Position numbers and translations under genes: made by a program. Of a DNA stretch of 64,000 nucleotides, positions 1 to 46,081 are shown one piece after another. Under the pieces are notes generated by a model. That model saw only the letters and a list, made by a program, of their open reading frames with translations, searched no databases and was not told the origin of the DNA. The DNA is from Candidatus Krumholzibacteriota bacterium (GTDB lineage Bacteria; Krumholzibacteriota; Krumholzibacteriia; JAJRXK01). The stretch is taken from positions 32,001 to 96,000 of the forward strand of contig CAVXTH010000007.1 of assembly GCA_963764625.1 (NCBI GenBank), given 5' to 3'. Every line of letters begins with the position of its first letter. The stretch's first letter is position 1.

Positions 1-393
1 GAGATCGAGGGCTTGCTGCATCGTCGCGGCCTTGGCCGTCGGTGTGGGGTTCGAAGGAGCGCCGGGGACTCCGGCCAACCAGAGCAAGCTCAGGCATGCC
101 GCGGCGGCCCAACCGACCCAGGGACCCAGGCGGAAACGGGCAACTCTCGCCGATTCCGAGCGCCGTTTGTGGGCGGCCGTCTCCCGGAGATCGGCCAATT
201 CCATCGTATTGACCGGGAGCACCGTGCTAGCGACTCCCAGGTTCAGCTCGTTTTGGTCCTTGAGCGAGAGGGCCAGGCGGTGCCAGAGTTCCGGATCCCG
301 CCGGGCTTTCTCCTCGAGTTCGTCCCAAGCGGCCGGTTCGGCGCAGCCGCTCAGTACGCGATGAAAAAGGGTGGCTTCGTGTCTCATCTTCAT
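1..393 (-). CDS. Probable anti-sigma factor (N-terminal domain plus TM helix), runs off the window edge
   Basis: Read manually, not in the ORF track: MKMRHEATLFHRVLSGCAEPAAWDELEEKARRDPELWHRLA...PWVGWAAAACLSLLWLAG. Its ATG overlaps the sigma factor stop (ATGA) and follows AAGGAG. Confidence 0.7.
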   Translation of the reverse strand, partial: MKMRHEATLFHRVLSGCAEPAAWDELEEKARRDPELWHRLALSLKDQNELNLGVASTVLPVNTMELADLRETAAHKRRSESARVARFRLGPWVGWAAAACLSLLWLAGVPGAPSNPTPTAKAATMQQALDL

Positions 394-983
394 TCTCCTT
401 GCCGTGCCATCGCGGCCGAGGCGGCGGGAACGGGGGCGGACAGCTTCTTCCGCAAAAGGCGGCGCGCCCGGACCAAGCGGGTTTCCACTGTGGTCTCGGG
501 CAACTGCAGGCTCTGGGCGATCTTCCTCTGGCTCATGCCCTCCAGAACGCGTAGGAGCAGGGGCTCTTGGTACTCGGTGGGCAGCTCGCGGGCTGCGGCC
601 AGCGCCTTCTGGGCGGCCAGGCCGGCTTCGAGGGCGGCGATGCTGCGCTCGGCGGAGTCGTCGGCGATGGTGTGATGATGGGTTTCGAGGCGGCTGAGGA
701 TCCGGCGTCTCAGGCCCGCTTTTCGTCCCGCCGTACGGGCAGTATTGAGCGCCACCTGCCGTAACCACGGCCGCAGCTTCGCCGGATCCTCCAGACTCTG
801 AATTCCCGCCACCACCTTCAACGCGACCTCCTGCAACAAATCTTCGAGTTCGCCCTCGCGGGGCATGTGCGCCAGAAGAACCACCGCGAGCCAGCGCCGG
901 TGCTCTCTCCACAGCCGATCTAGGGCCGCGGCATCTCCAGCCTGGATTTGCTGGAGGAGCTGGACTTCGGAATTTTGTTCCAT
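390..983 (-). CDS. ECF (sigma-70 group 4) RNA polymerase sigma factor
   Basis: Region 2 (EDLLQEV...WLRQVALNTA) and region 4 (LPTEYQEPLLLRVLEGMSQRKIAQSLQLPETTVETRLVRARRLL) in 197 aa. Confidence 0.92.
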   Translation of the reverse strand: MEQNSEVQLLQQIQAGDAAALDRLWREHRRWLAVVLLAHMPREGELEDLLQEVALKVVAGIQSLEDPAKLRPWLRQVALNTARTAGRKAGLRRRILSRLETHHHTIADDSAERSIAALEAGLAAQKALAAARELPTEYQEPLLLRVLEGMSQRKIAQSLQLPETTVETRLVRARRLLRKKLSAPVPAASAAMARQGE

Positions 984-3468: not shown

Positions 3469-3882
3469 AGAATCCTCGCGTGGGTAGGTCGAGATTGCCC
3501 TGAATCACCCCGTCTGGGCCCGAGCGCGGAGCGGAGGGAATCATAGCAGAACCACCTCATGAGGAAAGCTCGGGCTGAAATGAGAAAGATCAGCGCTCGA
3601 GGGGGAGGATCCGACGAATTCTCGTCTTTGTAGGAGAGTCCATTGCTCCTTCGGCGCTGGTCCCACCCCGCCGATCGAGTTGGGCTCCCGGGGATGGGGG
3701 GACCACGTGAGGAAAGGGAGCCTCCTCTACGGGGCCGCCCCTCCCCCTCGTTTTCTTCCTCCGCATGGCTCTCCACCCGAGTCGCTAGACGGTTCGACGA
3801 GCCAAGGGGTATCGTCAACGCGTCTGGACTTCACTGTTCACTGACTGATTGATATCTCGATCCTCGCACTGAGGGGTTTCCC

Positions 3883-5214
3883 ATGAATTCCCTGTTTCAC
3901 CAGCGGCAGATTCGGCGCTTTGTCGAACTGCTGGTCCTTACCCTCTGCCTTCCCTGCGTTTTCACCAGCTCATCCCGCGCCGCGGTTTCTCCTGATCAAG
4001 CGGAGCACTTGATCATCTGTCCCGCGGCCTTCGTGCCCCAATTCGAGGTCTTGGCGAATCACCGCACTTTCGTGGCCGACTTGCCCAGCTGTGTGGTGAC
4101 TCTCGAAGATGTCCTGACTAGCGCGCCCGCTGGACGCGATGACGCCGAGACTCTCCGCAACTACCTGATCCAGCAGTATGCACTGGGCCATCTTCGCTAC
4201 GTTCTCTTGGGCGGCGATAGTGGTGTCATGCCGGTGCGCTTTGCGAGGAGCGCCTTCAATCCCTATGGAGGTTATACGGACTTAGAAACGGACCTTTATT
4301 TCGCTTGCCTGGACGGCGATTGGGACGCTGATGGCGATTCTATTTTCGGCGAAGGATATACTACCTACGATGATCCGGGCGACGACGTGGACCTGAGTCC
4401 AGAACTCGCCGTGGGCCGTGCACCCGTCAACTCCATTGCTCAGGCAGAGCGCTTTGTTCAGGGCGTTATTTCGTATGACACCCTGAATCCTGCCCCTCAT
4501 CTCGCATCGGCTGCGATGCTCGCGGAGGTCCTCTTCCCGAGCGATTGGGACGGTACAGAATCGATCAATCTCGATGGAGCAACCTATGCGGAGGACTACG
4601 TGATGGCCTTGGCCACCCATCCCTCTGCACCCATGATCACGCGGATCTACGAAAATTGGAGTGATTATCCTGGATCACAGCCACTGACAACGGCCGCGGC
4701 GCTCTCTACCCTCGACTCGGGAACCTTTGGTCTTCTGTGCTTCTTGGGGGAGGGTAGTCTCACCAGTCTTCCCGCCGGCAATGGCACGTTCTCCATCACT
4801 CAAATCGATGCTTTGACAAACGCACCGCGCTTTTACTTCGCCATCTCTGCGTCAAACAACTCCGCTTCCTTCTTCGACGATTGTGCCTTAGAACATCTGA
4901 TTCTCGCTGCGGACGGTGGATGTGCTGGGGCAATTGGGTTTACCGAACTGGTGCTCGGTACTGAATTCTCCCAGTACACCAAGGAGTTTCTCCAGCAGGT
5001 TGCTGCAGGTACCGGAATTCTCGTGGGAGATGCCATGCGCTCAGTCCTGCAGCACCATGCCCCCAGCTTGCCCTATGAAACTCTCTGGCGGTGGAACAAC
5101 TTGACTTGGTGCCTTTTAGGAGACCCCGCCACTCCCTTTCGGACGGAGTTGTTGCCGATCCCTGCGAAGGCGACGAGTCTGGGCGGTTTGAAGGCGCGGT
5201 TCAGGCGGCGCTAG
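3883..5214 (+). CDS. Secreted peptidase C25 (gingipain-fold) family protein, probably catalytically inactive
   Basis: Signal peptide; YVLLGGD, TDLYFACLDG, LAVGRAPV, LLGDPA. The expected GHG and catalytic Cys positions read GEG and SASNN. Confidence 0.8.
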   Translation: MNSLFHQRQIRRFVELLVLTLCLPCVFTSSSRAAVSPDQAEHLIICPAAFVPQFEVLANHRTFVADLPSCVVTLEDVLTSAPAGRDDAETLRNYLIQQYALGHLRYVLLGGDSGVMPVRFARSAFNPYGGYTDLETDLYFACLDGDWDADGDSIFGEGYTTYDDPGDDVDLSPELAVGRAPVNSIAQAERFVQGVISYDTLNPAPHLASAAMLAEVLFPSDWDGTESINLDGATYAEDYVMALATHPSAPMITRIYENWSDYPGSQPLTTAAALSTLDSGTFGLLCFLGEGSLTSLPAGNGTFSITQIDALTNAPRFYFAISASNNSASFFDDCALEHLILAADGGCAGAIGFTELVLGTEFSQYTKEFLQQVAAGTGILVGDAMRSVLQHHAPSLPYETLWRWNNLTWCLLGDPATPFRTELLPIPAKATSLGGLKARFRRR

Positions 5215-5357
5215 CAAATTCCCCATTTCTTGCGCGGAGAGCTTCGCGCCGAAATGCCTGGCGGATGCAAGTACGGCCAGTGGGGTTCCCTCTTCGCTCG
5301 CGTGCGCCGTATTCTTCCACATGAGGCTCCTCTGACTCTCTCGATGGGAGGCACGTC

Positions 5358-5812
5358 GTGCTTTGCCGGCGATGAGTCGAGCTGGTCGTTCTTGGATTCT
5401 TGCTCCTCGCGAGCCACTGGTTCCTATCCTCCGCCAACGCCGACTGCGGACTGATGGGGGCGTTTCCGACCAATTGCGACACCAAGCTGGAGCTTCCGGC
5501 GGGGGAGACATCCCACAGGGACAGCCGACGGGCCTTCGCACTCGGTTGCTGGGAACTGCTCCCAATCCCTTCAACCCACGCACCCAGATCCGCTTCGAGC
5601 TCGAGCATGCGGCGGACGTACGGCTTCAGATTTTCGACGGGGCGGGACGCCTGGTACGCAGCTGGAGTTGGTTCCAGATGGAGGCCGGACTTCACGCGGT
5701 ACCGTGGGATGCCCGTGATGAGCACGGGAATGCGGTTGCGAGCGGGGTGTACCACCTGCGGCTTCTGACCGGTGGAAAGGCGATAGCCCATCCGATGGCG
5801 CTTCTGCTTTGA
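5358..5812 (+). pseudogene. Internally deleted paralog of the 5966-7511 gene (signal peptide joined to FlgD Ig domain)
   Basis: GTG at 5358 after GGAGG; TGA at 5373; 4-nt deletion near 5502 relative to the paralog; APNPFNPRTQIRFEL...VASGVYHLRL. Confidence 0.7.
5431..5780 (+). repeat. Diverged direct repeat, copy 1 (copy 2 at 7126-7479)
   Basis: Both copies encode ANADCGLMGAFPTNCDTKLE...GVYHLRLLT; many differences are synonymous third-position changes. Confidence 0.9.
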
Positions 5813-5965
5813 AGCTCGGCGCGGTTGCCGCGAAGACGATTCTCTCGAGCTGTCTACCCGGGTAGAACGCGGGCGCGGGCGTTTTAGCGCCAGGGTTGCC
5901 CCTTTGGCTCCTTTTGAGGTACGCTTGCCGGTGGCTCCTCTCACTCGCGAGATTGGAGGCGCGCC

Positions 5966-7511
5966 GTGTTCCCCCGACGCTGCATTGGGCTGTCCCTTCT
6001 CCTGAGCATTCTGATCGTTGCGTTCCCTCGCCTTAACTTCGCCGCGACGCTTCTCGTCCCGAAGACTTTTCGCTCGATGAGGCGCTCGCCAGCGCCGCCC
6101 CGGGCGATACCGTCTCGGTGGCAGGTGGAGCGATCGATCGGGGGTGGTCACCCTGCCTCCGGGGATCGTTCTTCTCTCGCGCGAATCCCAGGGCAATACT
6201 CTGATCCAGCTGCTTGCCTGGAATCTGAGCCTGGCCCTCGAGGTAAGGGGATTTCACTTCGCTCTTTTTCCTGTGCGGATCTTCACATCCAACTGGCACG
6301 GCGTCATCGTGGACAACTCCGAAGTATCGTTCGTCGACTGTCAGTTCATTGGTCCTGGAGTCGTGGGTGGTACTCTCGACGGTTCGGAGTACCCCGGAGT
6401 TGGTGATAGATCGTTTTCCGCTCCAGATCGTCAATGGTTCCACGGTGAGTTTGAATTCCTGTACGTTCCGCATGAATTAATCAATTTCATGTCCTTCCGA
6501 ATGATCCCAGCGCGATCAGTTCCCAGGATTCTTCGCTGGAGATCCTGAATTGCCTATTCGAGGAACAGGATTTCGCGATCGATTCGAATGGTCCCTTGAC
6601 CATCACCGACAGCACCTTTCGCCACTGCAACTGGGCTTTCCTTCGTTCCAGCTGGCCCGCTCTGGATGTTGGGAAACCTCTTCGTGGATTGTGGTCCGTA
6701 CTACTGGGTCGATCGTTACTATTCGACCTCGACCAAGGACCCCTATCCCTACTGCCGGCAGACCAGGAGCATCGTTCTCAGCGGCTCGGTTCATCTCTAT
6801 CGCAACACTTTCGTAGACAATCCAATCCACTTTGGCTTCGATTACTATTGCGATCTGCCCGAGCCCGATCTGCGCCTTCCCCTCGTCACGATCGATTCTT
6901 CTGCCCAGGGCTGGATCCAGCGCAACCTCTTCATCGGTCTCACCGGTCCCGCGGTCGAGGCGCCCGCATCGATCGAGGTGTCGTGCAACGACGCCTGGGA
7001 CGGTTTGGGGCAGTATTGGGTCGGCGGAATCGGCGACGTGACCGGCATCAACGGGAACATCTCCGAGGCGCCGATCTTCTGCGATCGACGCAATGGTGAC
7101 TACACTCTCAGCGTGCAATCTCCGGCCGCCAACGCCGACTGTGGTCTCATGGGTGCTTTTCCCACCAACTGTGATACGAAGTTGGAGATTCCGGCGGACG
7201 GAGGAGACCTTCCGAAGGGGCAGCCGGCGAGCCTGCGGACCCGTTTGCTCGGAGCCGCGCCCAATCCCTTCAACCCGCGTACCGAGATCCGCTTCGAGCT
7301 GGAGCACTCGGGAGACGTGCAGCTGGAGATCTTCGACGTCGCCGGCCGTCTGGTGCGCAGCTGGAGTTGGTCCCAGATGGAAGCCGGGCCTCACGCGGTA
7401 CCGTGGGATGCCCGCGATGCGCACGGGAATGCGGTTGCGAGCGGGGTGTACCACCTGCGGCTCCTGACCGCCGGAAAGGTGATGACTTCGCGCGCGGCGC
7501 TTCTGCGCTGA
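5966..7511 (+). pseudogene. Secreted right-handed beta-helix protein with C-terminal FlgD Ig domain, several frameshifts
   Basis: Signal peptide, then ATLLVP-(shift)-EDFSLDEALASAAPGDTVSV, typical of beta-helix N-termini. Fragments lie at 6144, 6596 and 6666. The C-terminus has NISEAPIFCD...DYTLSVQSPA and PNPFNP. Confidence 0.65.
7126..7479 (+). repeat. Diverged direct repeat, copy 2 (copy 1 at 5431-5780)
   Basis: Aligns with 5431-5780. Confidence 0.9.
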
Positions 7512-7567: not shown

Positions 7568-9296
7568 TCAGGGCTGCTGGGCCTTCTGGACGGCGGCACG
7601 CAAGAGCGGCGCCCAGCCATCGTCGGGACCGAGCTGCTCGTAGCGCTGCAGTAGCCTCTCCGCGGTTTCCACTTCGTGCAGGGCGAGCGCCACTTGGATC
7701 TCGTCATAGAGCGCACGGAGATAGTGTGGCGAGGAGCTTTCCACTCTCTTCAACAGCGCTTCGGATCGTCGCAGGTGAGCAGTTCGTTCCGCTTCACTCT
7801 GCGCCTTCAAGGAACGCTGATACTCCACGATCGCCAGACCGATGAGGGCTTCGCCGTTGAGGGGATCGTGCTGGAGCGACTCCCGATAGTTCTGCTCGGC
7901 CAGATCCAGTTTCCCTCGCGCCAATTTGAGATGCGCCAGGGCATTGCTCGTTCCGACTGGATCGACTCCGCGGCTGCGTTGCAGGATGAGGGTTTCCTCG
8001 GCCGCCAGCATCTGCGCCTCGCTGGCGCCACTCGTCGCTGCCGCGGCGATTCCCGGGGGCCTCCCGGGAGAAATCCTGCGCCAGGCGAAGGGGCGCGGCC
8101 ACTCCGCTCGGGTACTGAAGATGGAGCTCCTCGGGAGCCACCGGCTGGGTGGTCTCGCCGAGAATCGGATCGGGGAGCTTCGAGCGCAGAAGGGGGGAAA
8201 CGGCGATGAACAGGACCGCCGCGGTCGCCAGGAGAACTTCAAGGGTTCGAGGCCGGGGCCAGCGCGGGAAGTTGACGACTGCCGAGGAGCTTCTCCGTTG
8301 GGCTCGCGCCAAGAGAGCAGCGTAGTACGCCGGGATGTCCTCCTCGTGGAGGTGTCCCCACTGCTTGGGATCCAAGGGGGCATCCAGGAGAGCGACGACT
8401 TCGGCCAAGGCACGACGGGCGTTCGCGTCGCGGCTCAGCAACTCCATGCGACGTGCGGTCGTCGTCTCGTCCAGCTCTCCCAGCACGAACCCGAGGATCT
8501 CCTCGGAATCACGCCACCCATCGCCGGAGGGACCCCCGGGCTCAAAGTGGCCGTCATCGATCGAACGGGAACGAGCGCCGGGTCCTCCAAAATGCCTTTG
8601 GAGGACCATGCGACCCCGCTCGATCACTTTCTCCACGCCGCCCCGGCTCAATTCGAAGCTGGCGATCGAGGCAATGCGCGCGGCAGAGAGCTGTTCCATG
8701 AACGCCAGGTTGCAGATGGCGATGTCCCGTTCACACGTGGAATGTTCACTCCAGTTCTTACGCAGAATCGGAGTGATCTGCTCTTTGATCTGCTGTACGT
8801 GAGTCCAGTTGTCGGGAGTCATCGCGCCGTCTTCGACCTGCGCGAGAACGAATTCGAGCCTATCTCCATCCAGCTGTGCGATTCTGGGACGCTTGATCCT
8901 GCTTTTCGCGTTGAGTCTGTCCCGCACCGTGTTTACGGCGGTCTGCCGCAAATACATGTGAAATTCGCCTTCACTGCGATTCGGGTGCTCGCGGAGGTGC
9001 TTTCGATCGTCGCGCAAGAGTTTGACCCAGCTTTCTTGGCCGACATCCTCGACGTCTTCAAGGGTGTACTTGCCGGGCGCGAGAAGGTGGAAGGTCCCTC
9101 GCGCGGCCTTTCGTACCACCGGATGGAAGCGGCGGATGAGCTCGTTCCATGCCCCCTGGTCCTTCGACTCGACGCAACGCGCGTACAGAGTTGAAAAGGG
9201 GGTGTCCTTGCCGCAGTCCACGCTGGCTCCCACGAGAAGACGATTGTGTTCATTCCCGGAAGAAGCCAGTTTGCTGGCAGACTCAGGGGCCGTCAA
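7568..9296 (-). CDS. ECF sigma factor fused to anti-sigma-like domain, TM helix and extracytoplasmic TPR domain; one frameshift near 8040
   Basis: ORF 7794-9296 has sigma2 (AWNELIRRF, EDVEDVGQESWVKL, YLRQTAVNTVRD), sigma4 (LAFMEQLSAARIA...VEKVIERGRMVL), an ASD-like segment (EEILGFVLGELD) and a TM helix (LEVLLATAAVLFIAVSPLL). The overlapping frame ending at 7568 has TPRs (LAHLKLARGKLDLAEQNYRESLQHDPLNGEALIGLA). The start codon is uncertain. Confidence 0.75.
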
Positions 9297-9398
9297 GACG
9301 GGCCCTGGTCATTGCCTCTACACTCAAGACGAGAATACGTGGATAATTCCTAGTGAGTTTTCGGTTTTATCCAGATCCCGCGATCAACGCATGAGGAC

Positions 9399-12300
9399 AT
9401 GGCCATTCATTCCAACCCGAGAGCCGCCTGGCCGTCTCCAAGGCCTCTTTCCCTCGCTCTGCTTTGCGGGGCCTTGGTCCTTTTCTTGGCCTGCGCGGCT
9501 CACCCCGAAGAGACAGATCTTCCCGGGCCCTATACTCCGCTGCTGCCCCCCGAGTCCTTGGCGCAGGCCTCTGGGGCTTCGGGGAGTCAGGAGGAATCCG
9601 AGGGGATCCTCGACGCCCTGACGGCCCGGACCGCGACGCAGCCGCAGAGCTTTTCCAACTGGACTCACACGGTGATTTTGCAGCTCTCGTTGCAGCGGCC
9701 GCTGGGAGCGTTGCGGACTCTGGAGCGCGCGCGAAGCCTTGAGTGGTCCCCGGAGCAGAGCGCCCAACTGGACTTTCTAAAGGCGGCGGCCGAGGTGGCC
9801 GTCGAGCCTCTGGAGGATGACGCACTCATCGGAGAGGAACATCTGGATCGCGCCCAAACGATCTTTCGACGCCTGCACTCACGCCCGGACATGGAGTTGC
9901 CCGCCTCGTTCGGTCTGGCGTGGATCTCGTGCGAGATGGGTCATCCCTCGGCGGCGCGAGAACTCCTCGAATCGAAGACCGACTTTCCCCCGCGGGCGGC
10001 GCAGCGTTTGTGGGAGGCCATGGTGCGTGCCTGCGGCTCCACCATGGACAGTTGGTTGCCCCACTTCGAACGAGCCCGCGCGGAGAACGATCGCGCGAAG
10101 CTCTCGGCCGCCGCCCGTCTGGCGCCCGGTCCCTACCTTCTCTATCTGCAGCAAGCGTTGGATGCCCCCATCGAAGAGGGCCTCTCCCTGGGCCGGGGTG
10201 GGCGCGCCGTGGATTTCTCCGCCGTCGATTCCCTCTTGAAGAGAGTGGAGCCTCCTTTTCCCGGCGCGTACTCGGGAGTTCGTGCCCGCATGCAGACCAT
10301 CCGAGGTCTCGATGGGCACGAGGGGTTGAGAGCTCTTTCGCTGGTGAGAGCGCTCCATCGCTTCGATGCCACCTTTGCCGACAAAGAGCTTGTGTGGCAA
10401 CGGCGCTGTGAGCTGGCGGTGCAGCTCTCCGAAGGCAGGGCCGATTCGTGTGAGGCCATGGGACTATGGTATCTGGCGGGACGCTGGCATTGGGGGCGTG
10501 GATTCGCCCAGGCGCAGCTCGGTCGACCCCTGGAGCAGGTTAAGGAATACGAAGCCGCGCTCGAGGCGGCCAAGAGACTCACTGACGCCGCATATCTTTC
10601 CAAAACGGCGTTCAATCTCTTCATGGTATGCGACGAAACCGCCAAGCAAGCGCAGCGCCTGGAGCTTCTTCCCATGCTGGTGAAGCTCGCGGAACAGAAG
10701 GGCGTCTCGGTTGCGGAGGTGGAAGTGGCCGAAGGAAGGGCGTACGAGGATCTCGGTGATCTCGAAAAGGCGTGGCGGATTACGACGAACGCGTATCGAG
10801 AGAGCCGTCGTCACGGAGCTCCTTACACTCAGATCACGGCGCTTTCGAATCTGGCGGGGCTGGCTCTTCGGCGGAATGAAAATGAAACGGCCTCGCGCTA
10901 CGCGCGTGCGATCCTCGCGCGGACTCGACCGGAAGATCTCCCGCCGCGTCTGCCCTCGTATGGAGAAGGTATTCTCGCGATGCGCACCTGGGCCATGCTG
11001 GATCTCGGCAAGGCTCTGCCCCCGAATGACCCGGAGCGCTTGAAGTGGTACGAGAGCGCCGAAAGCTCGGCTCGCGGACAGGAACAGTACGCGCAGCTGC
11101 TCCACATCCGATTGGCCAGGGCCGAAGAGTATCTGGACGAAAACGACCTGTTCGCCGCCACCAAGACGCTTGCTTCCGCGCGTGCGCTCGCCTTGCGCCA
11201 CGACTACGAGTACGGACTCTGGAGGGTCGACGCGCTCCAGGCTCGCTGCGAGAAATTGGCGGGAGACTACCAGGCAGCCGCGCGTAGCTACGATGCCGCT
11301 CTGCGGGGTTTGGAGGGGATCAGCGAACACATCAACAATGCGGAGCACCGGGCCGGGTTCCTCTTACCCGCCTCGAGGGTCTTTCAGGACGCGATTACGC
11401 TCTTGCGCGGGCCCCTGCACGATCCGTCCACGGCGTATGCCGTCGACGAGCGAGCGCGGGCACGAGCTCTCCTTCAGAGAGTCAGCGGGAAGGTCTCGGG
11501 TTCGCAGCTTCGCAGCGCCGCCGAAGTTTGCTCCAGTTTGCGGGACGATCAGGTGCTACTCCAATACCGCGTTCATGAGGATGGAATCGATCTCTGGATT
11601 CTGACTTCCACCGGGATTCGCCTCGAGGAGATCGCGCAAAAGGAGAGCGAGCTTCAAGAGAACATCCAGCGTTGGCGGACCGAAATCGGGCGAGGCTTCA
11701 CCAGTAGCTTGGGAGCGAAGCTAGGTTCGCTTCTGTTGACCCCGGCCGCCGGTGAGTTGGCGGTCAGCGATCAGGTCGTCGTCGTCACGGACGAACCGCT
11801 GAGCCGCGTACCCTTCGCGTTGCTGCGACTCGATGGCGAGTACCTCCTCCAGCGCCACGCCGTTTCGTGTGAACTGAGCGGAAGTATCCGCTGCGCCCTG
11901 ATGGAAAGAAAACCGCTCGGCCCGAAAGAGGGTGTCCTGGCGGTAGGCTACGGTGGTGGTACGGCCGCGCAGACACTGCACCTGCGGGAGCTTCCTTTCG
12001 TGGAATCCGAGGCAAGCCTGGTGGCGGGGTTGGCGTCCAGTAGCCGGCTGCTCCTGGGCGAACACGCCACCGCCGACAGTGTGGCCGCGTTGTTGCCCGA
12101 GGCGGGCATACTTCATCTCGCGGCGCATGCCGGACTCGATGCGTTTGGTGAACCGTTTTTGCTGCTGGCGCCCCGAAAGGATGGGGATGGACTCGTTCAT
12201 GGAGAGCAGCTCTCCGCTTGGCCTCTAAACAAGGTGTCGTTGGTGACTCTAGCCGGTTGCGAGACAGCGCGACTCGGCTCATCCGAAGTACAGGGTGATC

Positions 12301-12530
12301 TCTCCTCTCTGGGCGTTTCCGTTTTTGCAGGGGGAAGTCGGGATCTAATCGCGTCTTTATGGAGTGTGGGGGACGACTCGACCATGAGACTCATGGCCTT
12401 GTTCTATCGAGAACTGTTCGAATCTCGTCGTTCTCCGGTTCAAGCACTCCGACACGCTCAGTTGGAATTGGCAGGCTCGGACGGGGCTTTGGAGCGTGAG
12501 TGGGGCGCGTTTTGTTTCTTCGGCCCTTGA
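9399..12530 (+). CDS. TPR-CHAT (caspase HetF-associated with TPRs) protease with predicted lipoprotein signal
   Basis: Hydrophobic N-terminus ending LFLA-C; TPR-like helices; CHAT motifs LSRVPFALL, LPFVESEA, ILHLAAHA (His), LVTLAGCET (Cys), IASLWSVGD, ALRHAQL, WGAF. Confidence 0.92.
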   Translation: MAIHSNPRAAWPSPRPLSLALLCGALVLFLACAAHPEETDLPGPYTPLLPPESLAQASGASGSQEESEGILDALTARTATQPQSFSNWTHTVILQLSLQRPLGALRTLERARSLEWSPEQSAQLDFLKAAAEVAVEPLEDDALIGEEHLDRAQTIFRRLHSRPDMELPASFGLAWISCEMGHPSAARELLESKTDFPPRAAQRLWEAMVRACGSTMDSWLPHFERARAENDRAKLSAAARLAPGPYLLYLQQALDAPIEEGLSLGRGGRAVDFSAVDSLLKRVEPPFPGAYSGVRARMQTIRGLDGHEGLRALSLVRALHRFDATFADKELVWQRRCELAVQLSEGRADSCEAMGLWYLAGRWHWGRGFAQAQLGRPLEQVKEYEAALEAAKRLTDAAYLSKTAFNLFMVCDETAKQAQRLELLPMLVKLAEQKGVSVAEVEVAEGRAYEDLGDLEKAWRITTNAYRESRRHGAPYTQITALSNLAGLALRRNENETASRYARAILARTRPEDLPPRLPSYGEGILAMRTWAMLDLGKALPPNDPERLKWYESAESSARGQEQYAQLLHIRLARAEEYLDENDLFAATKTLASARALALRHDYEYGLWRVDALQARCEKLAGDYQAAARSYDAALRGLEGISEHINNAEHRAGFLLPASRVFQDAITLLRGPLHDPSTAYAVDERARARALLQRVSGKVSGSQLRSAAEVCSSLRDDQVLLQYRVHEDGIDLWILTSTGIRLEEIAQKESELQENIQRWRTEIGRGFTSSLGAKLGSLLLTPAAGELAVSDQVVVVTDEPLSRVPFALLRLDGEYLLQRHAVSCELSGSIRCALMERKPLGPKEGVLAVGYGGGTAAQTLHLRELPFVESEASLVAGLASSSRLLLGEHATADSVAALLPEAGILHLAAHAGLDAFGEPFLLLAPRKDGDGLVHGEQLSAWPLNKVSLVTLAGCETARLGSSEVQGDLSSLGVSVFAGGSRDLIASLWSVGDDSTMRLMALFYRELFESRRSPVQALRHAQLELAGSDGALEREWGAFCFFGP

Positions 12531-12553
12531 CCCCTCGTTTCAGGAGGCGCGCG

Positions 12554-13219
12554 ATGAGCCACTTCAAGGCCTGCAATCTAGAAAAGGACAATGCGGCACT
12601 TCCCGGATCCATGGAAAATTCCTGTCTTTCGGTGCGCACCGGCAAGATGTCCTTCATTCAGTTCGGTTTCCGTCAAGATCCAGGTGCGAAGGTAACAGGC
12701 AAGTTTCAATCGGATAAAGTGGTCCTCCTGGTGCTCAACGACCACCGTAATGTCCAGTACCAGATCGAGAACGGGAACGAGGTCCTCGATCTGAGCTCAC
12801 AGCAGCTGAAGGATCACGTCTGCATCCTGTGGCCAAAAGGCAAGACGGTGCCCGTCGAGCTCTCACCCGAATACCTCTTTGGACACCGTTCGCCGGACAC
12901 CAGGGGACAGGGCGAACGGATCTGGCCCCGCGAGTCCTACACGGACGATCAGGGGATCCGCAGAGACTGGGATTCGGCCCTGGTCTTCCGGGACCCTTCG
13001 AACCAGTACGCCTACGAGTATCGAACCGGCGCCGACGGGTGCACCGACGATTACCGCTTCGCCCTCGAGTCGGAGGAGATCGTCGCGTGGCTCTGGAAAA
13101 AGGATGAGAGCGCGCCGAAGCTCCTGCTTCCGGAGGGACAGACCGTGACCCGCGCCCTGCAGGCCGAGAGCGGTGGCGCCCAGGGAGAAGGAGGCGCTTT
13201 GCCTTACCCTCCGGGCTAG
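12554..13219 (+). CDS. Hypothetical beta-rich protein with Gly/Pro C-terminal tail
   Basis: ATG at 12554 after AGGAGG; 221 aa; lies tightly between the CHAT and S8 genes; ends GGAQGEGGALPYPPG. Confidence 0.75.
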   Translation: MSHFKACNLEKDNAALPGSMENSCLSVRTGKMSFIQFGFRQDPGAKVTGKFQSDKVVLLVLNDHRNVQYQIENGNEVLDLSSQQLKDHVCILWPKGKTVPVELSPEYLFGHRSPDTRGQGERIWPRESYTDDQGIRRDWDSALVFRDPSNQYAYEYRTGADGCTDDYRFALESEEIVAWLWKKDESAPKLLLPEGQTVTRALQAESGGAQGEGGALPYPPG

Positions 13220-13228
13220 AGCGAGGCC

Positions 13229-14659
13229 ATGCCGTCGCCCGCGAGCGAGGGGAAAGCGGCGCTGCTGGTTCAGGGGTACTGGCGCACCGGGTCTTCGGCG
13301 CCGCCCGCTTCCCGCGCGAAGTTGCTTCGAGAATGCTCAGGTATTTCCACGGACTTGAGCGAGAGGATTCAGGCCTCGCTGCCCTCGGCCTCGGTAGAGG
13401 GTAGCCTGGCCCTTGCGCCGCTCTTGTACGTCCGATGTGACGCCGCAAAAACGGCGGGCTTCGTCGAGGAACTTCGTGGCTGGAAGCAAGTCGAGCGCGT
13501 CGAGGAAGTCCTCCCCGAACCAAAGAACGCGAGGCCGGCTCTTGTTCCGCTTGCTCCACGTCTTTTGAACTCGGAGTTGATCGTCGGCTTCGCGGATATC
13601 GGCACACCCGACCTCCGCTCTCCGCTCCTTCGTTCTCTGCTCCCGCGCTTCGATGGAGCCCCCTCTTTCGATTTCCACGGGGAGGGCTTGCGAGGCGGTC
13701 ATCCCACGGCGGTTCTTGCCTGCTTCCTTGAGGCCCTCCAAACGGACGACTTTCCTCGCTGTGTTTTCGAGAGTCTCAGTCTTGACGCGGGACCCTTCGC
13801 CTGGCTCGCGGCTCTGGACCGACTGCTCTGCCGCGGAGCGGCCGTCGTCAACTTGAGCTACGGTCGTCTTCCCCTCGAACGAGAAATGGGGTGGGGTGGC
13901 CTCGCGTGGGGCACCGAGCTCTTGTGCCGAAGCAGTGGTGCCGTCGTCGTTGCCGCCGCGGGACGGCTCGATACCGAATTGCGCCTGGGGCAGCATCTCT
14001 ATTTGCCCGCTTCCGCTCCGCACGTGCTGGTCGCCGACGAGAGGGGGCGCACGGGCGCGGGCCGTGCGAGGGGCGAGGGGGAGAAAGTCCTTCTTGCCTC
14101 CCGAGCCAATCCTACCGGAGGACGGCCCGGATCCTCCTACTCCACGCCGCGCATCGTCGCACGGGTGGTAGATGCCCTTCGCGTGCTTGGCGAGCCCGCG
14201 CGCGATTACGAGTCGCTCGTGGCCCTTCTGCTCGCCTCGGCGCGCCCCCATGCTTCGGACTCTCTCAGTCCCGGCTCTCCCGATCGAAAACGCCTGCGGC
14301 GAATCGTGGCGACCGGGAGTCTCATCACCGGCACCTCAAGCCGGAGCCTGGAGCTTCCTCGTTCGGTGGGGATTCCCCTCCGCCTTGCGATCGCCTGGCG
14401 GGATTCCGGACAACAGGCGCGACTCATCGCTCCCTCGTGCCGACGCCTCTACCGGCTCCGCCGGGCCGCGCAGTGGATGGTCATGGACTTTCTCCCCGGC
14501 GATTCCCGGCTCCACGTGCTCCGAGTCGGCGGCCGGTGGACGGCGGCCTGGTTGCCTCTGACGAAGGGTGATCTCTCGTGCTTGCGAAGCGCCAAGCCGC
14601 GTTCTGGCGAGCGATCTCTACCGCTTGGGGCGGCGCTCCCGCGCCCAGCAGCATTCTGA
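13229..14659 (+). CDS. Divergent S8 (subtilisin-like) serine protease
   Basis: Triad-like motifs VGFADIG (Asp), GHPTAV (His) and GSSYSTP (Ser); also VVNLSYG, VVVAAAG, LVALLLASA and LRLAIAW. Confidence 0.75.
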   Translation: MPSPASEGKAALLVQGYWRTGSSAPPASRAKLLRECSGISTDLSERIQASLPSASVEGSLALAPLLYVRCDAAKTAGFVEELRGWKQVERVEEVLPEPKNARPALVPLAPRLLNSELIVGFADIGTPDLRSPLLRSLLPRFDGAPSFDFHGEGLRGGHPTAVLACFLEALQTDDFPRCVFESLSLDAGPFAWLAALDRLLCRGAAVVNLSYGRLPLEREMGWGGLAWGTELLCRSSGAVVVAAAGRLDTELRLGQHLYLPASAPHVLVADERGRTGAGRARGEGEKVLLASRANPTGGRPGSSYSTPRIVARVVDALRVLGEPARDYESLVALLLASARPHASDSLSPGSPDRKRLRRIVATGSLITGTSSRSLELPRSVGIPLRLAIAWRDSGQQARLIAPSCRRLYRLRRAAQWMVMDFLPGDSRLHVLRVGGRWTAAWLPLTKGDLSCLRSAKPRSGERSLPLGAALPRPAAF

Positions 14660-38421: not shown

Positions 38422-38454
38422 TCCTCCCCCTCGAAGGTAGTCGGTGGAACGCCC

Positions 38455-38630
38455 GGGGTCGGTCTCCTGGCTTCCGGCTCGTGCCGAACGATGCGCCTTC
38501 CCGGGAATCACCCAGTGGCGTCATGCATCCTTCGTCGCCGGTCACAGTGGCGGGGCCGCGCTGGTCTTGCACCAGACTTCCACATTTGTCCCGCCGGGCG
38601 TCGATGTGAGTTCCGCGCAAGCGGAACCAA
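38455..38630 (-). ncRNA. Cobalamin (AdoCbl) riboswitch
   Basis: Minus strand reads ...AATGTGGAAGTCTGGTGCAAGACCAGCGCGGCCCCGCCACTGTGA...GCCACTGGGTGATTCCCGGGAAGGC...AAGCCAGGAGACC (B12 box). Confidence 0.93.
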
Positions 38631-38691
38631 AGACACACTAGCTCAGGGTTGCGATCGAACGCAAGCGAGAACTCGAACGCGGTTGCTGTCT

Positions 38692-42213: not shown

Positions 42214-43110
42214 GTGGCCAAGAGCGAGCGTACCCGGCACGTGATGGGAGAGCCGCGCCTGGGCAAACCAGAGTGGCTCAGAGTGAAGCCCCGTGCCGGA
42301 AAGGACTATTTCGAGCTGCGGCGACTCTTCCGTGACAAGCAACTGCGCACCATTTGCAGCGAAGCGAAGTGTCCGAACACGGCGGAATGCTGGGGCCAAC
42401 GTACCGCGAGTTTTCTCATTCTCGGAGAGAGATGCACGCGTCGCTGCACCTTCTGCAACGTGGGCTATGGATGGAGCGGAGAGCTCGATCTCGATGAACC
42501 GCGCCGCCTCGCCGAGGGAGTGGCCTCGCTGGATCTGCGACACGTGGTTCTCACTTCCGTCGATCGCGACGATCTGGACGACGGCGGAGCCTCCGTCTTC
42601 GTCGAGAGCATTCGCAGACTGCGCGACCTGAGCGAGGATCTCCGAGTAGAGGTGCTCACCCCCGACTTCGCCAACAAGGAAGGCGCTCTGGGCCGTGTGC
42701 TCGACGCCGGTCCGGACGTGTTCGCGCACAATCTGGAAACCGTCGAGCGGCTCTATCCCGGAGTGCGACCGCGCTCTTCGTACGCGGGTTCGCTCGAAGT
42801 GCTCCGCACGGCGGATCGCCATTCGAAACGACCGGTGGTGAAGACGGGAATCATGGTGGGTTTGGGGGAGACCATGGACGAGATCGAGCAGCTCATGCGC
42901 GACGCCCGCGCAGCGGGAGTGGAGATCTTGACGGTGGGCCAGTATCTCCAACCGAGTCCGCGTCACCACCGAGTCGAGCGATTCTATCCTCCCGACGAAT
43001 TCCAGGAGATCGCCCGGCGCGGCCGGAGCCTCGGTCTGTCCTGGGTCGAATCGGGTCCTCTGGTGCGATCTTCCTATCATGCCGCGCAGCAACACGGAGC
43101 CCTCGCTTAG
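42214..43110 (+). CDS. lipA: Lipoyl synthase
   Basis: KPEWL, CSEAKCPNTAECW, CTRRCTFC, HNLETV, GQYLQP, VRSSYHA. Confidence 0.97.
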   Translation: MAKSERTRHVMGEPRLGKPEWLRVKPRAGKDYFELRRLFRDKQLRTICSEAKCPNTAECWGQRTASFLILGERCTRRCTFCNVGYGWSGELDLDEPRRLAEGVASLDLRHVVLTSVDRDDLDDGGASVFVESIRRLRDLSEDLRVEVLTPDFANKEGALGRVLDAGPDVFAHNLETVERLYPGVRPRSSYAGSLEVLRTADRHSKRPVVKTGIMVGLGETMDEIEQLMRDARAAGVEILTVGQYLQPSPRHHRVERFYPPDEFQEIARRGRSLGLSWVESGPLVRSSYHAAQQHGALA

Positions 43111-43117
43111 GCGCCCG

Positions 43118-44473
43118 ATGGCCCTGCCGGCGCGGCAGTGGGCCGCGGTGGCAGTCCTGGCCCTCGGCGTGCTGGCCGCGGTAGGTGGGGGCCTCTGGCA
43201 GTTCGACCGGCACGCGGGCGATTACCTCCGCGAGGCACTGGGGAACCAGCTCCAGGATCAGGCGGTGGGCGTGGCCTCGACCATCGCGGGCGACTCCTTG
43301 GCCTTCTGGGCCCTGCGAAGCGAGGACCCGAGTTGGCAGACGCCTCTCTTGAAATCACTGGGGCGCATTCGCCAGGATAACGAACTCGCCAACATCTTCA
43401 TCTGTCTTCCCGAAGGCAGAGTGGTATTGGACGTGAGCCAGAGTCTCGTCCCCGGCAGCACCAATCCTTTTCTCGCTCTGGACCCGGCCGAAATCGAGGC
43501 AGCCCGCTCGGGAATCGCGAGTCATTCGCAGCTCTATCATCCCCTCGGGGATCGTTACTTCATGACCGGTTACGCACCAATCTTCGACGCGTTGGACGAA
43601 GTGGCCGGTTTCGTGGGGGTGGACGCCAGCGTCGGGTACTTCGATGCTCTTCACGATCTGCGCCGCAGCCTTCTGCTCATCGGCGGGACGGTCGTCGCAC
43701 TGGTGGCTCTGTTGATGATTCTCTGGGTGGGTTACGCTCGACGTCTCGCGCGGGCTCGCAACCTCCTCTTGCGCCACGAGACACTCTCTGCCATGGGACG
43801 AATGGCGGCAGGAATCGCCCACGAGATTCGCAATCCGCTGGGCATCATCAAGAACACGGCTCAGTTGCTCAGGGAAGACCTACAGGAGCAAGGCGTGAAC
43901 GCGGAGATGATCGACTACATCCCCGAGGAGGTCGACCGTCTGAACGAAATCCTGACCGGCTACCTCGACTTCGCCCGTCAAGCGCCCGCTCATTTCGCCG
44001 AGTTAGACCTCACAAATCTCCTTCAACGCACGCTCCGCTTACTGCAGCAGGATTTTCGAGACATCGGCGTCGATGCGATGGATAGCCTGAGCGACTGTCG
44101 CGCCCTGATGATCGAAGGTGACAAGAGAAGACTCCAGCAGGTCTTCCTGAACCTCTTTCTCAACGCGCTGCAGGCCATGCCCCAAGGGGGGACTCTCGGG
44201 GTCGAGCTCGAGGAAAGTGCGGATTTCGTCACCGTCAAAGTCAGCGACTCCGGGGTGGGACTCGCGCAGGAGGACAGCACGCGCGTCTTCGAGCCGTTCG
44301 TCACCACGAAAGAAAAGGGAAGCGGATTGGGCTTGAGTGTGGTGAAACGGATCGTGGTGGAGGATCATGGGGGTAGCGTCGAATTGGAAGGGAGACCCGG
44401 AGGTGGTGCGGTGGCCACGGTCGTCCTGCCCCGGCGGCGCGGGGGGAAATCCAAATCGCAAAGAGGAGAGTAG
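43118..44473 (+). CDS. Membrane sensor histidine kinase (NtrB/ZraS-like)
   Basis: Two TM helices; AHEIRNPL; QVFLNLFLNA; DSGVG; PFVTTK; GSGLGL. Confidence 0.95.
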   Translation: MALPARQWAAVAVLALGVLAAVGGGLWQFDRHAGDYLREALGNQLQDQAVGVASTIAGDSLAFWALRSEDPSWQTPLLKSLGRIRQDNELANIFICLPEGRVVLDVSQSLVPGSTNPFLALDPAEIEAARSGIASHSQLYHPLGDRYFMTGYAPIFDALDEVAGFVGVDASVGYFDALHDLRRSLLLIGGTVVALVALLMILWVGYARRLARARNLLLRHETLSAMGRMAAGIAHEIRNPLGIIKNTAQLLREDLQEQGVNAEMIDYIPEEVDRLNEILTGYLDFARQAPAHFAELDLTNLLQRTLRLLQQDFRDIGVDAMDSLSDCRALMIEGDKRRLQQVFLNLFLNALQAMPQGGTLGVELEESADFVTVKVSDSGVGLAQEDSTRVFEPFVTTKEKGSGLGLSVVKRIVVEDHGGSVELEGRPGGGAVATVVLPRRRGGKSKSQRGE

Positions 44474-44474
44474 A

Positions 44475-45842
44475 GTGGCCCGGATTCTGGTGGTGGATGA
44501 CGAATCCAAAATGCAGGAGCTCCTGGCGAAAGCCCTCGCCCGGCGGGGTCACGAAGTACGCACCGCGGGCGATGGCGTGGCGGCGATCGCGCAGTTGGAG
44601 GAGTCCGAGGCCGAAGTCGTGTTCTCCGATCTTCGAATGCCCGGCCTCGACGGTGTCGAACTGCTCGCCAAAGTGCGTGAACGCTGGCCGAATACTCGAC
44701 TCGTCATCATGACCGGTCACGGTGACGACGTGCGTACCGCGGTCGAGGCCATGAAGTTGGGAGCCTACGACTACCTCACCAAACCGCTCGATCTGGAGGA
44801 GGTGGCGATCATCGCCCAGCGAGCCGCGCAGGAGCGCGAGCTCTCTCTGGAGAATGCCCGCTTGCGCGGTGTGGTTCACCGCCAGAACCAGGGCAAGGAG
44901 ATGGTGGGGGAGAGCGAGGCGATGGCGCGGGTACGCGAACTCGTACTGAAGGTCGCGCCGACCGACGCGACGGTTCTCGTTCGCGGCGAGAGTGGCACCG
45001 GGAAGGAATTGACGGCCCGGGCGATTCACCAGTACAGCAAGCGAGCCAAACGGCCCTTCTTGGCCGTCAATTGTGCCGCCATCGCGGATACCCTGCTCGA
45101 GAGCGAACTCTTCGGTTACGTGAAAGGTGCGTTCACTGGGGCGGATCAAAACAAGGCCGGTCTCTTCGAACTGGCCGACAAGGGAACGCTCTTTCTGGAC
45201 GAGATCGCCGAGGCGAATGCTTCGGTGCAGGCCAAGTTGCTCCGAGCGCTCGAGGAAAAACGCTTCCTCCCGGTGGGCGCTCACCGTGAGATCGAAGTGG
45301 ACGTCCGGATCGTCGCCGCCACCAACAAGGACCTCGAGTCTCTCATCGCGGATAACCGATTTCGCGAGGACCTCTTCTACCGCTTCAACGTGTTTCCAGT
45401 GGAAGTCCCGCCCTTGCGCAACCGCATCGAGGATCTGCCGGGTCTGGTGGGACACTTTTTGAGTGGTTTCGGCCGCGATCCGAACGAGATCAGTCCCGAA
45501 GTCTTCGCCCGTCTGCGCGCGTACCCGTGGCCGGGTAACGTGCGGGAGTTGCGGAACATCCTGGAGCGAGCGCACATCCTGGCGCAGGGGGAAGCGATCG
45601 GGCTGGGGCATGTGCTCCTGCCCGAAAGGCTCGGTGGGAGCGACCAGGAGCTGCTGGGCGCAAGACCGCTCAACCTTCGTATCGAGGACCATGAGCGGCG
45701 ACTCATCCGCCTGGCCCTGAACCGGGCGGGGGGGAACAAGACCAAGGCGGCCGAGCTTCTGGGGCTGTCACGCCGGGCCCTCTACAGCCGGATGGAGCGC
45801 CTGCAACTGCCGATCGAAGGCACCCCCGAGGAGGGCGACTAG
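44475..45842 (+). CDS. Sigma54-dependent response regulator (NtrC family)
   Basis: Receiver domain (VVDDE, DLRMP), GESGTGKE, GAFTGA, WPGNVREL, Fis-type HTH; GTG start at 44475. Confidence 0.96.
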   Translation: MARILVVDDESKMQELLAKALARRGHEVRTAGDGVAAIAQLEESEAEVVFSDLRMPGLDGVELLAKVRERWPNTRLVIMTGHGDDVRTAVEAMKLGAYDYLTKPLDLEEVAIIAQRAAQERELSLENARLRGVVHRQNQGKEMVGESEAMARVRELVLKVAPTDATVLVRGESGTGKELTARAIHQYSKRAKRPFLAVNCAAIADTLLESELFGYVKGAFTGADQNKAGLFELADKGTLFLDEIAEANASVQAKLLRALEEKRFLPVGAHREIEVDVRIVAATNKDLESLIADNRFREDLFYRFNVFPVEVPPLRNRIEDLPGLVGHFLSGFGRDPNEISPEVFARLRAYPWPGNVRELRNILERAHILAQGEAIGLGHVLLPERLGGSDQELLGARPLNLRIEDHERRLIRLALNRAGGNKTKAAELLGLSRRALYSRMERLQLPIEGTPEEGD

Positions 45843-45864
45843 GGCGCCGGCTGCAGCCGGTTGG

Positions 45865-45899
45865 CGTCCCAGCCGGGACAGAGTGTCCCTGAGGGTACA
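45865..45899. promoter_or_regulatory. Tandem dyad enhancer (putative bEBP upstream activating sequences)
   Basis: CGTCCCAGCCGGGACA (45865-45880) and TGTCCCTGAGGGTACA (45884-45899), both YGT-N10-ACA. Confidence 0.6.
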
Positions 45900-46017
45900 A
45901 GCACGACGGGGGATCGAGAGGGGTGAAGGGGAAAGAGAGGCCTTGGCTGGTCGCTCAACCCCATGTAAACAATGAAGTTCGAGTCAGCTTGCCGGTAAAG
46001 GGGTCAGGGGGGGCCGG

Positions 46018-46034
46018 TGGGAATGAGCATTGCA
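46018..46034 (+). promoter_or_regulatory. Putative sigma54 -24/-12 promoter
   Basis: TGGGAATGAGCATTGCA: GG(46020-21)-N10-GC(46032-33), with TTGCA. Confidence 0.6.
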
Positions 46035-46081
46035 GCAAACGGGGCAAACGATCCATTCTGGAGAATCCAGGAGCGCCGATC

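Follow-up and report, generated by a model that had tools for sequence, protein, structure and literature searches.

The closest described system is the DdvS/DdvA pair of Myxococcus xanthus, in which, according to the sections of PMC11506125 available to us, a sigma factor of the extracytoplasmic function (ECF) type, a zinc-type anti-sigma domain, a single transmembrane helix, and periplasmic TPR repeats are combined with the His-Cys dyad of a TPR-CHAT protein, and the CHAT domain of DdvA is proposed to act as site-1 protease ahead of RseP. Group ECF54 sigma genes lie beside a TPR-CHAT gene and a subtilase gene, and proteolytic control has been proposed for them; in ECF48, ECF52, ECF53, and IutY, the sigma factor carries a zinc-type anti-sigma domain and a transmembrane helix in the same chain, and release of IutY by proteolysis, with Prc and RseP, has been shown (excerpts of PMC7826278 and PMC8999054). 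In type III-E Craspase (Csx29, Csx30, and CASP-sigma), an ECF sigma factor is set free when a TPR-CHAT protease cuts its inhibitor (excerpts of PMC10028731). Here, we analyzed a four-gene unit in 64,000 nucleotides from Candidatus Krumholzibacteriota bacterium (contig CAVXTH010000007.1, positions 32,001 to 96,000; this whole stretch is referred to as the window). A sigma fusion gene on the minus strand is divergent from plus-strand genes for a TPR-CHAT protease, a 221-aa orphan protein, and a 476-aa S8 subtilase. As judged from sequence comparison, the unit probably frees a membrane-tethered sigma factor by means of an exported caspase-like protease, and it looks like envelope signaling rather than defense.

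The four-gene unit is real and conserved, and it is more than a chance co-occurrence. Among 208 Krumholzibacteriota genomes, many of which are incomplete so that a missing match only means "not found," the orphan gene was present in seven; orphan, S8 subfamily, and fusion occurred in these same seven and were adjacent in every one, in one order and orientation and in one copy per genome. Thus, the proposal that these genes belong together held. The fusion profile matched 13 genomes at E ≤ 1e-8, full-length in the seven carriers and weakly and partially in the other six; the S8 subfamily profile matched 15, of which the same seven carry the subfamily and the other eight matched weakly. Because the profiles were built including sequences from the seven genomes, high scores there arise by construction, and it is the absence of matches in other genomes that carries information. 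The carriers belong to one family and three genera: the genome of the window (G000) and G001 to G004 form one genus, and G005 and G006 represent two others. Six of the nine other family members carry the unit, and the records of the relatives are titled Ca. Krumholzibacteriota. Pattern scans based on the sigma alignment, which reach close relatives only, returned the six known relatives (species genomes) and two metagenome contigs. In the window genus, the unit lies between an acyl-CoA dehydrogenase gene and an epimerase/M20 peptidase pair, and in the two other genera between the citrate synthase and His-tRNA synthetase genes. Judged by this placement, it is inherited vertically at a fixed site and is not an island. 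The flanking genes had originally been called unrelated; they are indeed housekeeping and secreted-protein genes, but the site is fixed in the genus and a second motif of the sigma promoter type lies at 3602-3628.

Each of the six relatives encodes the fusion in a single uninterrupted frame, with the sigma factor, a GGPGARS linker, the anti-sigma domain, a transmembrane helix, a periplasmic linker, and TPR repeats. The fused architecture of the original prediction was thereby confirmed for the relatives, but in the window it is split over two different frames: the open reading frame for sigma factor, anti-sigma domain, and helix ends at 7794, with junk after the helix, and that for the TPR part ends at 7568. 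Counted from GTG 9233, which coincides with the start in the relatives, the fusion has 554 codons. The divergent orientation was correctly recognized, but the distance of about 100 bp was not, as TTG 9296 belongs to the promoter element TTGACG (the -35 box) and the more likely GTG start leaves a gap of 165 bp. The ECF sigma part comprises about residues 1-212. It matched TIGR02937 below the cut-off (E 2.7e-7), the fusions of all six relatives matched PF04542, and the sigma profile matched SigE chains of the M. tuberculosis type (E 2e-4). The TPR part was 69-71% identical to the C terminus of the unbroken G002 and G003 fusions. The zinc ligands H-x3-C-x2-C are kept in the anti-sigma domains of G005 and G006 and lost in the window genus; zf-HC2 matched weakly in one of the six relatives. 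GGPGARS was invariant in all eight sequences compared despite synonymous codon changes, i.e. seven consecutive invariant columns versus a background of about 15%.

The CHAT domain was recognized by PF12770 with E 6e-41 and 141 bits versus a cut-off of 24, His-Cys dyad included. Gaps of 23 bp (TPR-CHAT/orphan) and 9 bp (orphan/S8), together with the located residues His910 and Cys954, substantiate the tight operon with an intact catalytic pair that had been described. The window and six relatives retain both residues, even where overall identity is no more than 25%, and no part of the protein is better conserved than the CHAT domain. No solved relative was found by phmmer. A signal-like hydrophobic segment spans residues 16-34, and all seven orthologues have an N-terminal one, whereas none of 12 S8 and none of 12 orphan sequences (some of them fragments) carries an export signal; these calls were made from hydropathy and by eye. 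CHAT is thus predicted from sequence to face the TPR side of the fusion, and the orphan and S8 would share the cytoplasm with the sigma factor. A lipoprotein reading of CHAT was rejected, the Cys after the signal segment occurring only in the window genome and no lipobox being conserved. In the periplasmic linker, the motif PLRLxQ-x4-E-x2-G-x2-R ends at Arg397; this Arg is invariant in all six relatives, and Gly follows it in five. Cleavage after Arg has precedents, since the CHAT protease HetF cuts PatU3 after Arg117 (in the available part of PMC9457339) and separases likewise cut after Arg (in that of PMC11506125). A comparable xR[G/S/A] stands 9-22 residues past the helix in six of ten separate transmembrane anti-sigma proteins beside other CHAT genes of the class. 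The original idea that CHAT cleaves the extracytoplasmic part of the fusion is therefore the best reading, both partners being predicted to be periplasmic and the linker carrying an invariant Arg; the cut itself is deduced.

The orphan had eight homologues at E ≤ 0.01, itself included. Its model (predicted local distance difference test, pLDDT, 78.7) is mostly beta, without a hydrophobic segment, and drops below pLDDT 50 at residues 211-221. The fold found no Foldseek match in the PDB or among viral structures, and the best VIA-align match reached Z 3.6; according to the model it may be a new fold. Gasdermin, which the original prediction had brought in as a parallel, was not among the listed matches (best Z 3.6, root mean square deviation 3.1, 61 aligned residues), and there was no Pfam match. 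The ESM Atlas gave no usable match for the window or G005 orphan, a weak search of 8000 scored longer candidates revealed no fused forms, and none was found in viral contigs or plasmids. The ratio of nonsynonymous to synonymous substitution rates (dN/dS) was 0.20-0.33. Pro-Pro(-x) ends the tail in 12 of 12 aligned sequences, and members of the genus hardly differ in this tail.

The window S8 protein gave no Pfam or NCBIfam match at E 0.1; its S8 label nevertheless stands by way of its relatives, as ten of 12 aligned family members match PF00082, and by its fold. The model (pLDDT 82.3) found ProN-Tk-SP (3afg) as best Foldseek match with E 1.6e-14, spanning prodomain, catalytic, and beta domain. 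The cyanobactin maturation proteases PatA/PagA are cytoplasmic precursor-peptide proteases, and among solved proteins they were the best profile matches (E 2e-18). Alignment to PatA places the triad at Asp123, His158, and Ser303, in agreement with a subtilisin fold. The oxyanion Asn is Arg246 in the window and Arg or Gln in the five genus genomes, and Asn in G005 and G006. The N-terminal domain is missing in G001 and G006. A dN/dS of 0.24-0.43 implies that the gene is maintained under selection.

Orphan and S8 diverge as a block. Between G002 and G003, six of the seven bins that span the two genes had a DNA identity of 0.58-0.67, and the DNA on both sides 0.76-1.00. Protein identity was 61% for the orphan and 60% for S8, versus a median of 90.7% for 74 other orthologue pairs, none of which was at or below 65%, and synonymous divergence (dS) was 1.2 versus 0.2-0.7. 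The last 12 residues of the orphan were nonetheless identical. Such a drop of both genes as one block, with the tail staying fixed, hints at a matched pair that can be exchanged and whose tail a conserved partner would recognize. The pattern suggests that the orphan may be a precursor and S8 its processing protease.

The motif facing the sigma gene has the consensus (T/G)(A/G)GG(A/G)(A/G)-N14-(T/G)CGTC, which we take to resemble ECF promoters. It matched 18 times in G000, four times outside called genes; one of these four apparently falls within an uncalled 5' portion of a kinase gene, and the other three are conserved. The third site, present in G000, G002, G003, and G004 (G000:C6:752332-753319, L122), overlaps a TTGACA box and precedes genes for a PF02397 sugar transferase, a histidine kinase, and a sigma54 regulator, with an exosortase 4 kb upstream. 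No defense gene stood behind any conserved motif site. Behind the second copy, the two-hairpin element had 92% of cells paired, and eight of 36 pairs were changed on both sides. FlgD-tailed secreted proteins follow it in three genomes; in G001 and G004, motif and element are on their own and converge with the end of the sigma gene. The element had no credible Rfam match. An identity as 6S RNA was rejected because 6S lies on C6, and a weak match in G005 was discarded, being within apparent coding sequence and without the promoter motif. The sigma70-like promoter of the sigma gene did not reach the threshold in the consensus scan, which identified no promoter for the CHAT operon; the ECF-type motif was rejected as such, since conserved copies elsewhere fit the opposite direction only. 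No RNA data were among the 17 runs listed.

These results invoke a five-step envelope switch, whose chances as a whole we consider even. The sigma factor would be tethered to the inner membrane through its own anti-sigma domain and transmembrane helix, an architecture that is seen and an inhibition that is presumed. The TPR-CHAT protease, predicted to be exported, would cut after the invariant Arg between helix and TPR domain. RseP, an M50 protease whose gene is present in the genome, would then cut the helix, and the cytoplasmic stub might be trimmed or stalled at GGPGARS, freeing the sigma factor. This would read GGRR-N14-TCGTC at its own gene, at the candidate small RNA and variable secreted-protein genes, and at the sugar transferase gene by the exosortase locus; the conservation of these sites is observed, and their use by the fused sigma factor presumed. 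Finally, orphan and S8 would act as a matched cytoplasmic pair in which S8 releases the fixed Pro-Pro tail, and this tail would be read by the TPR region of CHAT once it is in the periplasm, e.g. upon membrane damage or lysis of a neighbor. For the core, with CHAT as site-1 protease at Arg397, RseP acting second, sigma release, and autoregulation, the odds seem somewhat better than even. Release of the tail as CHAT ligand by S8 is the role that we favor for the pair, but it is the weakest step and, taken alone, less likely than not.

Several points weigh against this switch. Orphan and S8 lack an export signal and no exporter gene is adjacent, which leaves the tail without a known path to CHAT. 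As CHAT has a signal segment and they do not, the orphan cannot simply reach it, and the originally proposed activation of CHAT by the orphan or its tail leaves the crossing of the inner membrane unexplained. At least eight other sigma/anti-sigma/CHAT loci of the class have neither orphan nor S8 among the neighbors scanned, which implies that the core does not need them. The motif xR[G/S/A] is short and can be suggestive only, as four of the ten separate anti-sigma proteins lack it near the helix and one of two control anti-sigma proteins matches. The block divergence stems from one genome pair; G001 and G004 show no contrast with CHAT (59% versus 54% and 57%), and G002 still groups with G003 in the S8 tree, so that discordance is seen only in the orphan tree. 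With the oxyanion Asn replaced in the genus and the catalytic Asp being Glu in G002, G005, and G006, S8 activity may be low. The promoter motif was not enriched genome-wide over the control in five genomes, further matrix hits did not exceed the control, and another ECF sigma factor could read the sites.

Among the alternatives, one keeps the periplasmic core and makes S8 a cytoplasmic finishing protease at GGPGARS, with the orphan as adaptor or inhibitor whose Pro-Pro tail occupies the S8 active site. This requires no membrane crossing, as S8, orphan, and linker would all lie in the cytoplasm; moreover, the linker is invariant at the protein level, a signal-less S8 occurs among 40 loci only beside a fused sigma factor, and orphan and S8 diverge together. 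A protease for an invariant linker is, however, not expected to be the fastest-changing gene (window/G003 identity 48% for S8 versus 74% for CHAT), and the linker might make a structural contact with sigma region 4. On balance, this alternative is possible but unlikely. Taken by itself, the notion that S8, regulated by the orphan, cleaves the cytoplasmic linker is doubtful, and what is left of our expectation for the pair goes to an effector or another role.

For the window genome, it must also be considered whether the frameshift is genuine and the switch broken or constitutive in this strain. The extra base at 8034 lies outside any homopolymer, and a run more than 99% identical to the window strain leaves the site uncovered. 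On the other hand, both halves are well conserved, the base is missing in contigs of runs X2 and X3 from a related strain, the loose end of an X4 contig is compatible with that reading in our own alignment, and contig L081 (93.7% identical) shows a single gap versus the window at this site. Moreover, when the window assembly was set against genes that are intact in two relatives, it showed frame breaks in 14 of 212 comparisons, affecting 11 distinct genes, some of them 89-94% identical to their kin; in reverse, breaks were found in one of 75 and five of 126 comparisons, some of the latter due to the assembly's own fragments. This assembly-wide excess and the related contigs point to an indel in the assembly as the probable cause, and a genuine frameshift appears unlikely.

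A variant of the envelope switch would be a damage-signal circuit of a Gram-negative bacterium, in which the tail that S8 cuts in the cytoplasm from a polymorphic precursor without fold match reaches the periplasm only on inner-membrane failure or sibling lysis and activates CHAT. The freed self-tethered sigma factor would then drive a response of the envelope and of exopolysaccharide, and the precursor's variable body would serve as sensor or strain tag. This proposal as a whole appears rather improbable. It is slightly less probable still that CHAT is an RseB-like binding partner shielding the periplasmic domain while a general protease makes the first cut: in the accessible part of PMC11506125, cleavage by the DdvA CHAT domain is not demonstrated and the resting structure has an incomplete site, but retention of His and Cys at such low overall identity and the strong conservation of the CHAT domain speak for catalysis. 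Finally, the defense function of the original prediction, recast as an anti-phage system in which S8 or CHAT activates the orphan as latent death effector and the sigma factor is the transcriptional arm, is very unlikely, for although S8 or caspase-like protease-effector pairs are common in defense (excerpts of PMC12642450), orphan and S8 are unusually variable, and the G005 S8 weakly matches two PADLOC subtilase models, the unit is a single copy whose place between housekeeping genes is fixed, its five reading frames in the window gave no PADLOC match, the genome has no Cas1 match, the orphan is a mostly beta protein without a hydrophobic segment, and the promoter targets are of the envelope type.

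Table 1. Coordinates of the features of the unit and its promoter motifs in the window
Feature	Position	Strand	Basis
Second copy of ECF-type motif	3602..3628	+	Same place in 5/5 genus genomes
Two-hairpin element, about 120 nt, behind the 3602-3628 motif; candidate small RNA	3635..3755	+	Covariation, 5 sequences
Periplasmic TPR domain, 154 codons, second frame	7568..8032	-	TPR_19, E 5e-8
Frameshift parting sigma factor and helix from TPR part	8034..8034	.	Run contigs and L081
Predicted CHAT cleavage site, Arg397	8043..8045	-	Alignment; cleavage deduced
Sigma fusion, first 399 codons: ECF sigma, GGPGARS linker, anti-sigma domain, transmembrane helix, periplasmic linker	8037..9233	-	Profiles, hydropathy
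Single transmembrane helix	8187..8243	-	Hydropathy
Anti-sigma domain	8250..8516	-	Alignment; boundaries approximate
Cytoplasmic GGPGARS linker joining sigma region 4 to anti-sigma domain; possible cleavage site or structural turn	8568..8588	-	Alignment
Sigma70-like promoter of sigma gene, TTGACG-N17-CAAACT	9268..9296	-	Alignment of five genus genomes
ECF-type motif facing sigma gene, TAGGAA-N14-TCGTC; candidate autoregulatory site	9326..9352	-	Same place in 7/7 genomes
TPR-CHAT protease, predicted exported, 1043 aa (CHAT domain 11709-12524)	9399..12530	+	PF12770, His910, Cys954, hydropathy
Orphan, 221 aa, beta-rich, no signal peptide; candidate precursor or S8 partner	12554..13219	+	Model, profile search
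Conserved C-terminal tail of orphan, GGxQxxGGALPYPPG type, predicted unstructured	13172..13216	+	Alignments, model
Signal-less S8: prodomain-like N terminus, catalytic domain, C-terminal beta domain	13229..14659	+	Model, Foldseek, profile

Elsewhere in the window, a further ECF sigma gene lies at 390-983 (-), with a likely anti-sigma gene downstream. Positions 3883-7511 (+) hold a variable secreted-type cluster with a C25 gingipain-like peptidase and FlgD-Ig-tailed frames, apparently frame-broken and different in content in G002 and G003, and a cobalamin riboswitch (RF00174) lies at 38440-38646 (-). Other CHAT loci were also inspected. L039 (G000:C7, about 235400-240400) and L040 (G000:C1, about 42300-46100) encode a sigma factor, a transmembrane anti-sigma protein, and an exported TPR-CHAT protein, without orphan or S8; the CHAT gene of L039 is frameshifted as well. 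L027, L028, L030, L035, L043-L045, L047, and L048 carry another CHAT subfamily followed by a conserved exported protein of 150-190 aa without Pfam match and mostly by a very large gene (M10 peptidase/beta-propeller in L027 and L028), with no sigma gene among the neighbors scanned. In L036 and L046, which are ECF54-like loci of the phylum, the topology is reversed: CHAT has no clear signal peptide, and S8 is lipoprotein-like with a signal. Both also carry a sigma factor and a soluble anti-sigma-like protein.

The four-gene arrangement is not described in the available portions of PMC12642450 and PMC8195603, and no description was found in a literature search that covered sources other than subscription journals and bioRxiv supplements. 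Craspase, originally brought in as a parallel, is cytoplasmic and is triggered by Cas7-11 and target RNA (excerpts of PMC10028731), which do not occur at the window locus. Instead of Cas7-11, a CRISPR array, and Csx30, the neighbors are housekeeping and secreted-protein genes. The originally noted absence of Cas and CRISPR was borne out: over the 64-kb window, Rfam gave the cobalamin riboswitch as sole match and no CRISPR repeat family, and no Cas1 match was found in the genome. PatA/PagA (PDB 4h6v, 3zxx, and 4h6w) are only about 20% identical to S8; in addition, the unit has no adjacent tailoring genes for peptides that are made on the ribosome and modified after translation (RiPPs), and its putative precursor is a folded 221-aa protein.

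The fused architecture of ECF48, ECF52, ECF53, and IutY recurs in all six relatives, with zinc ligands in G005 and G006 only, but those groups belong to other phyla, and the available parts of PMC7826278 and PMC8999054 describe no CHAT or TPR sensor for them. With ECF54, the unit shares the neighborhood of CHAT-TPR and subtilase genes but not the anti-sigma status, phylum, or promoter, as ECF54, from the same excerpts, is actinobacterial, has no anti-sigma factor, carries a carboxypeptidase-regulatory-like gene at +1, and uses the promoter GTATCAG/CTCC. The ECF54 context and DdvA/DdvS are closer than Craspase. In DdvA, CHAT lies within the anti-sigma protein and the sigma factor is separate, whereas in all seven genomes studied here CHAT is separate and the sigma factor fused; DdvS controls an island of CRISPR and the cyclic oligonucleotide-based antiphage signaling system (CBASS), whereas the predicted targets of the window unit are envelope genes; and no S8 or tailed partner is described for DdvS/DdvA (PMC11506125, in its available sections). 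A check for a corresponding island gave no Cas1 match and no defense gene at conserved motif sites, CBASS genes not being searched for.

The range of the unit is narrow, as it occurs in a single family of uncultured bacteria, and the general theme of sigma factor, anti-sigma factor, CHAT, and S8 has already been catalogued. For DdvA, action of CHAT as site-1 protease of a membrane anti-sigma factor is still a hypothesis because its signal is unknown. With a separate protease and substrate, a predicted cut site, a target promoter, and an operon-encoded candidate ligand, the unit makes this hypothesis directly testable. By analogy, it would work like DdvS/DdvA with redistributed parts and is a member of none of the groups compared, the ECF groups having been compared by description. 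The context of sigma factor, CHAT, and subtilase is known from ECF54; the fused sigma factor with a signal-less pair of putative precursor and S8 was not found in the literature searched.

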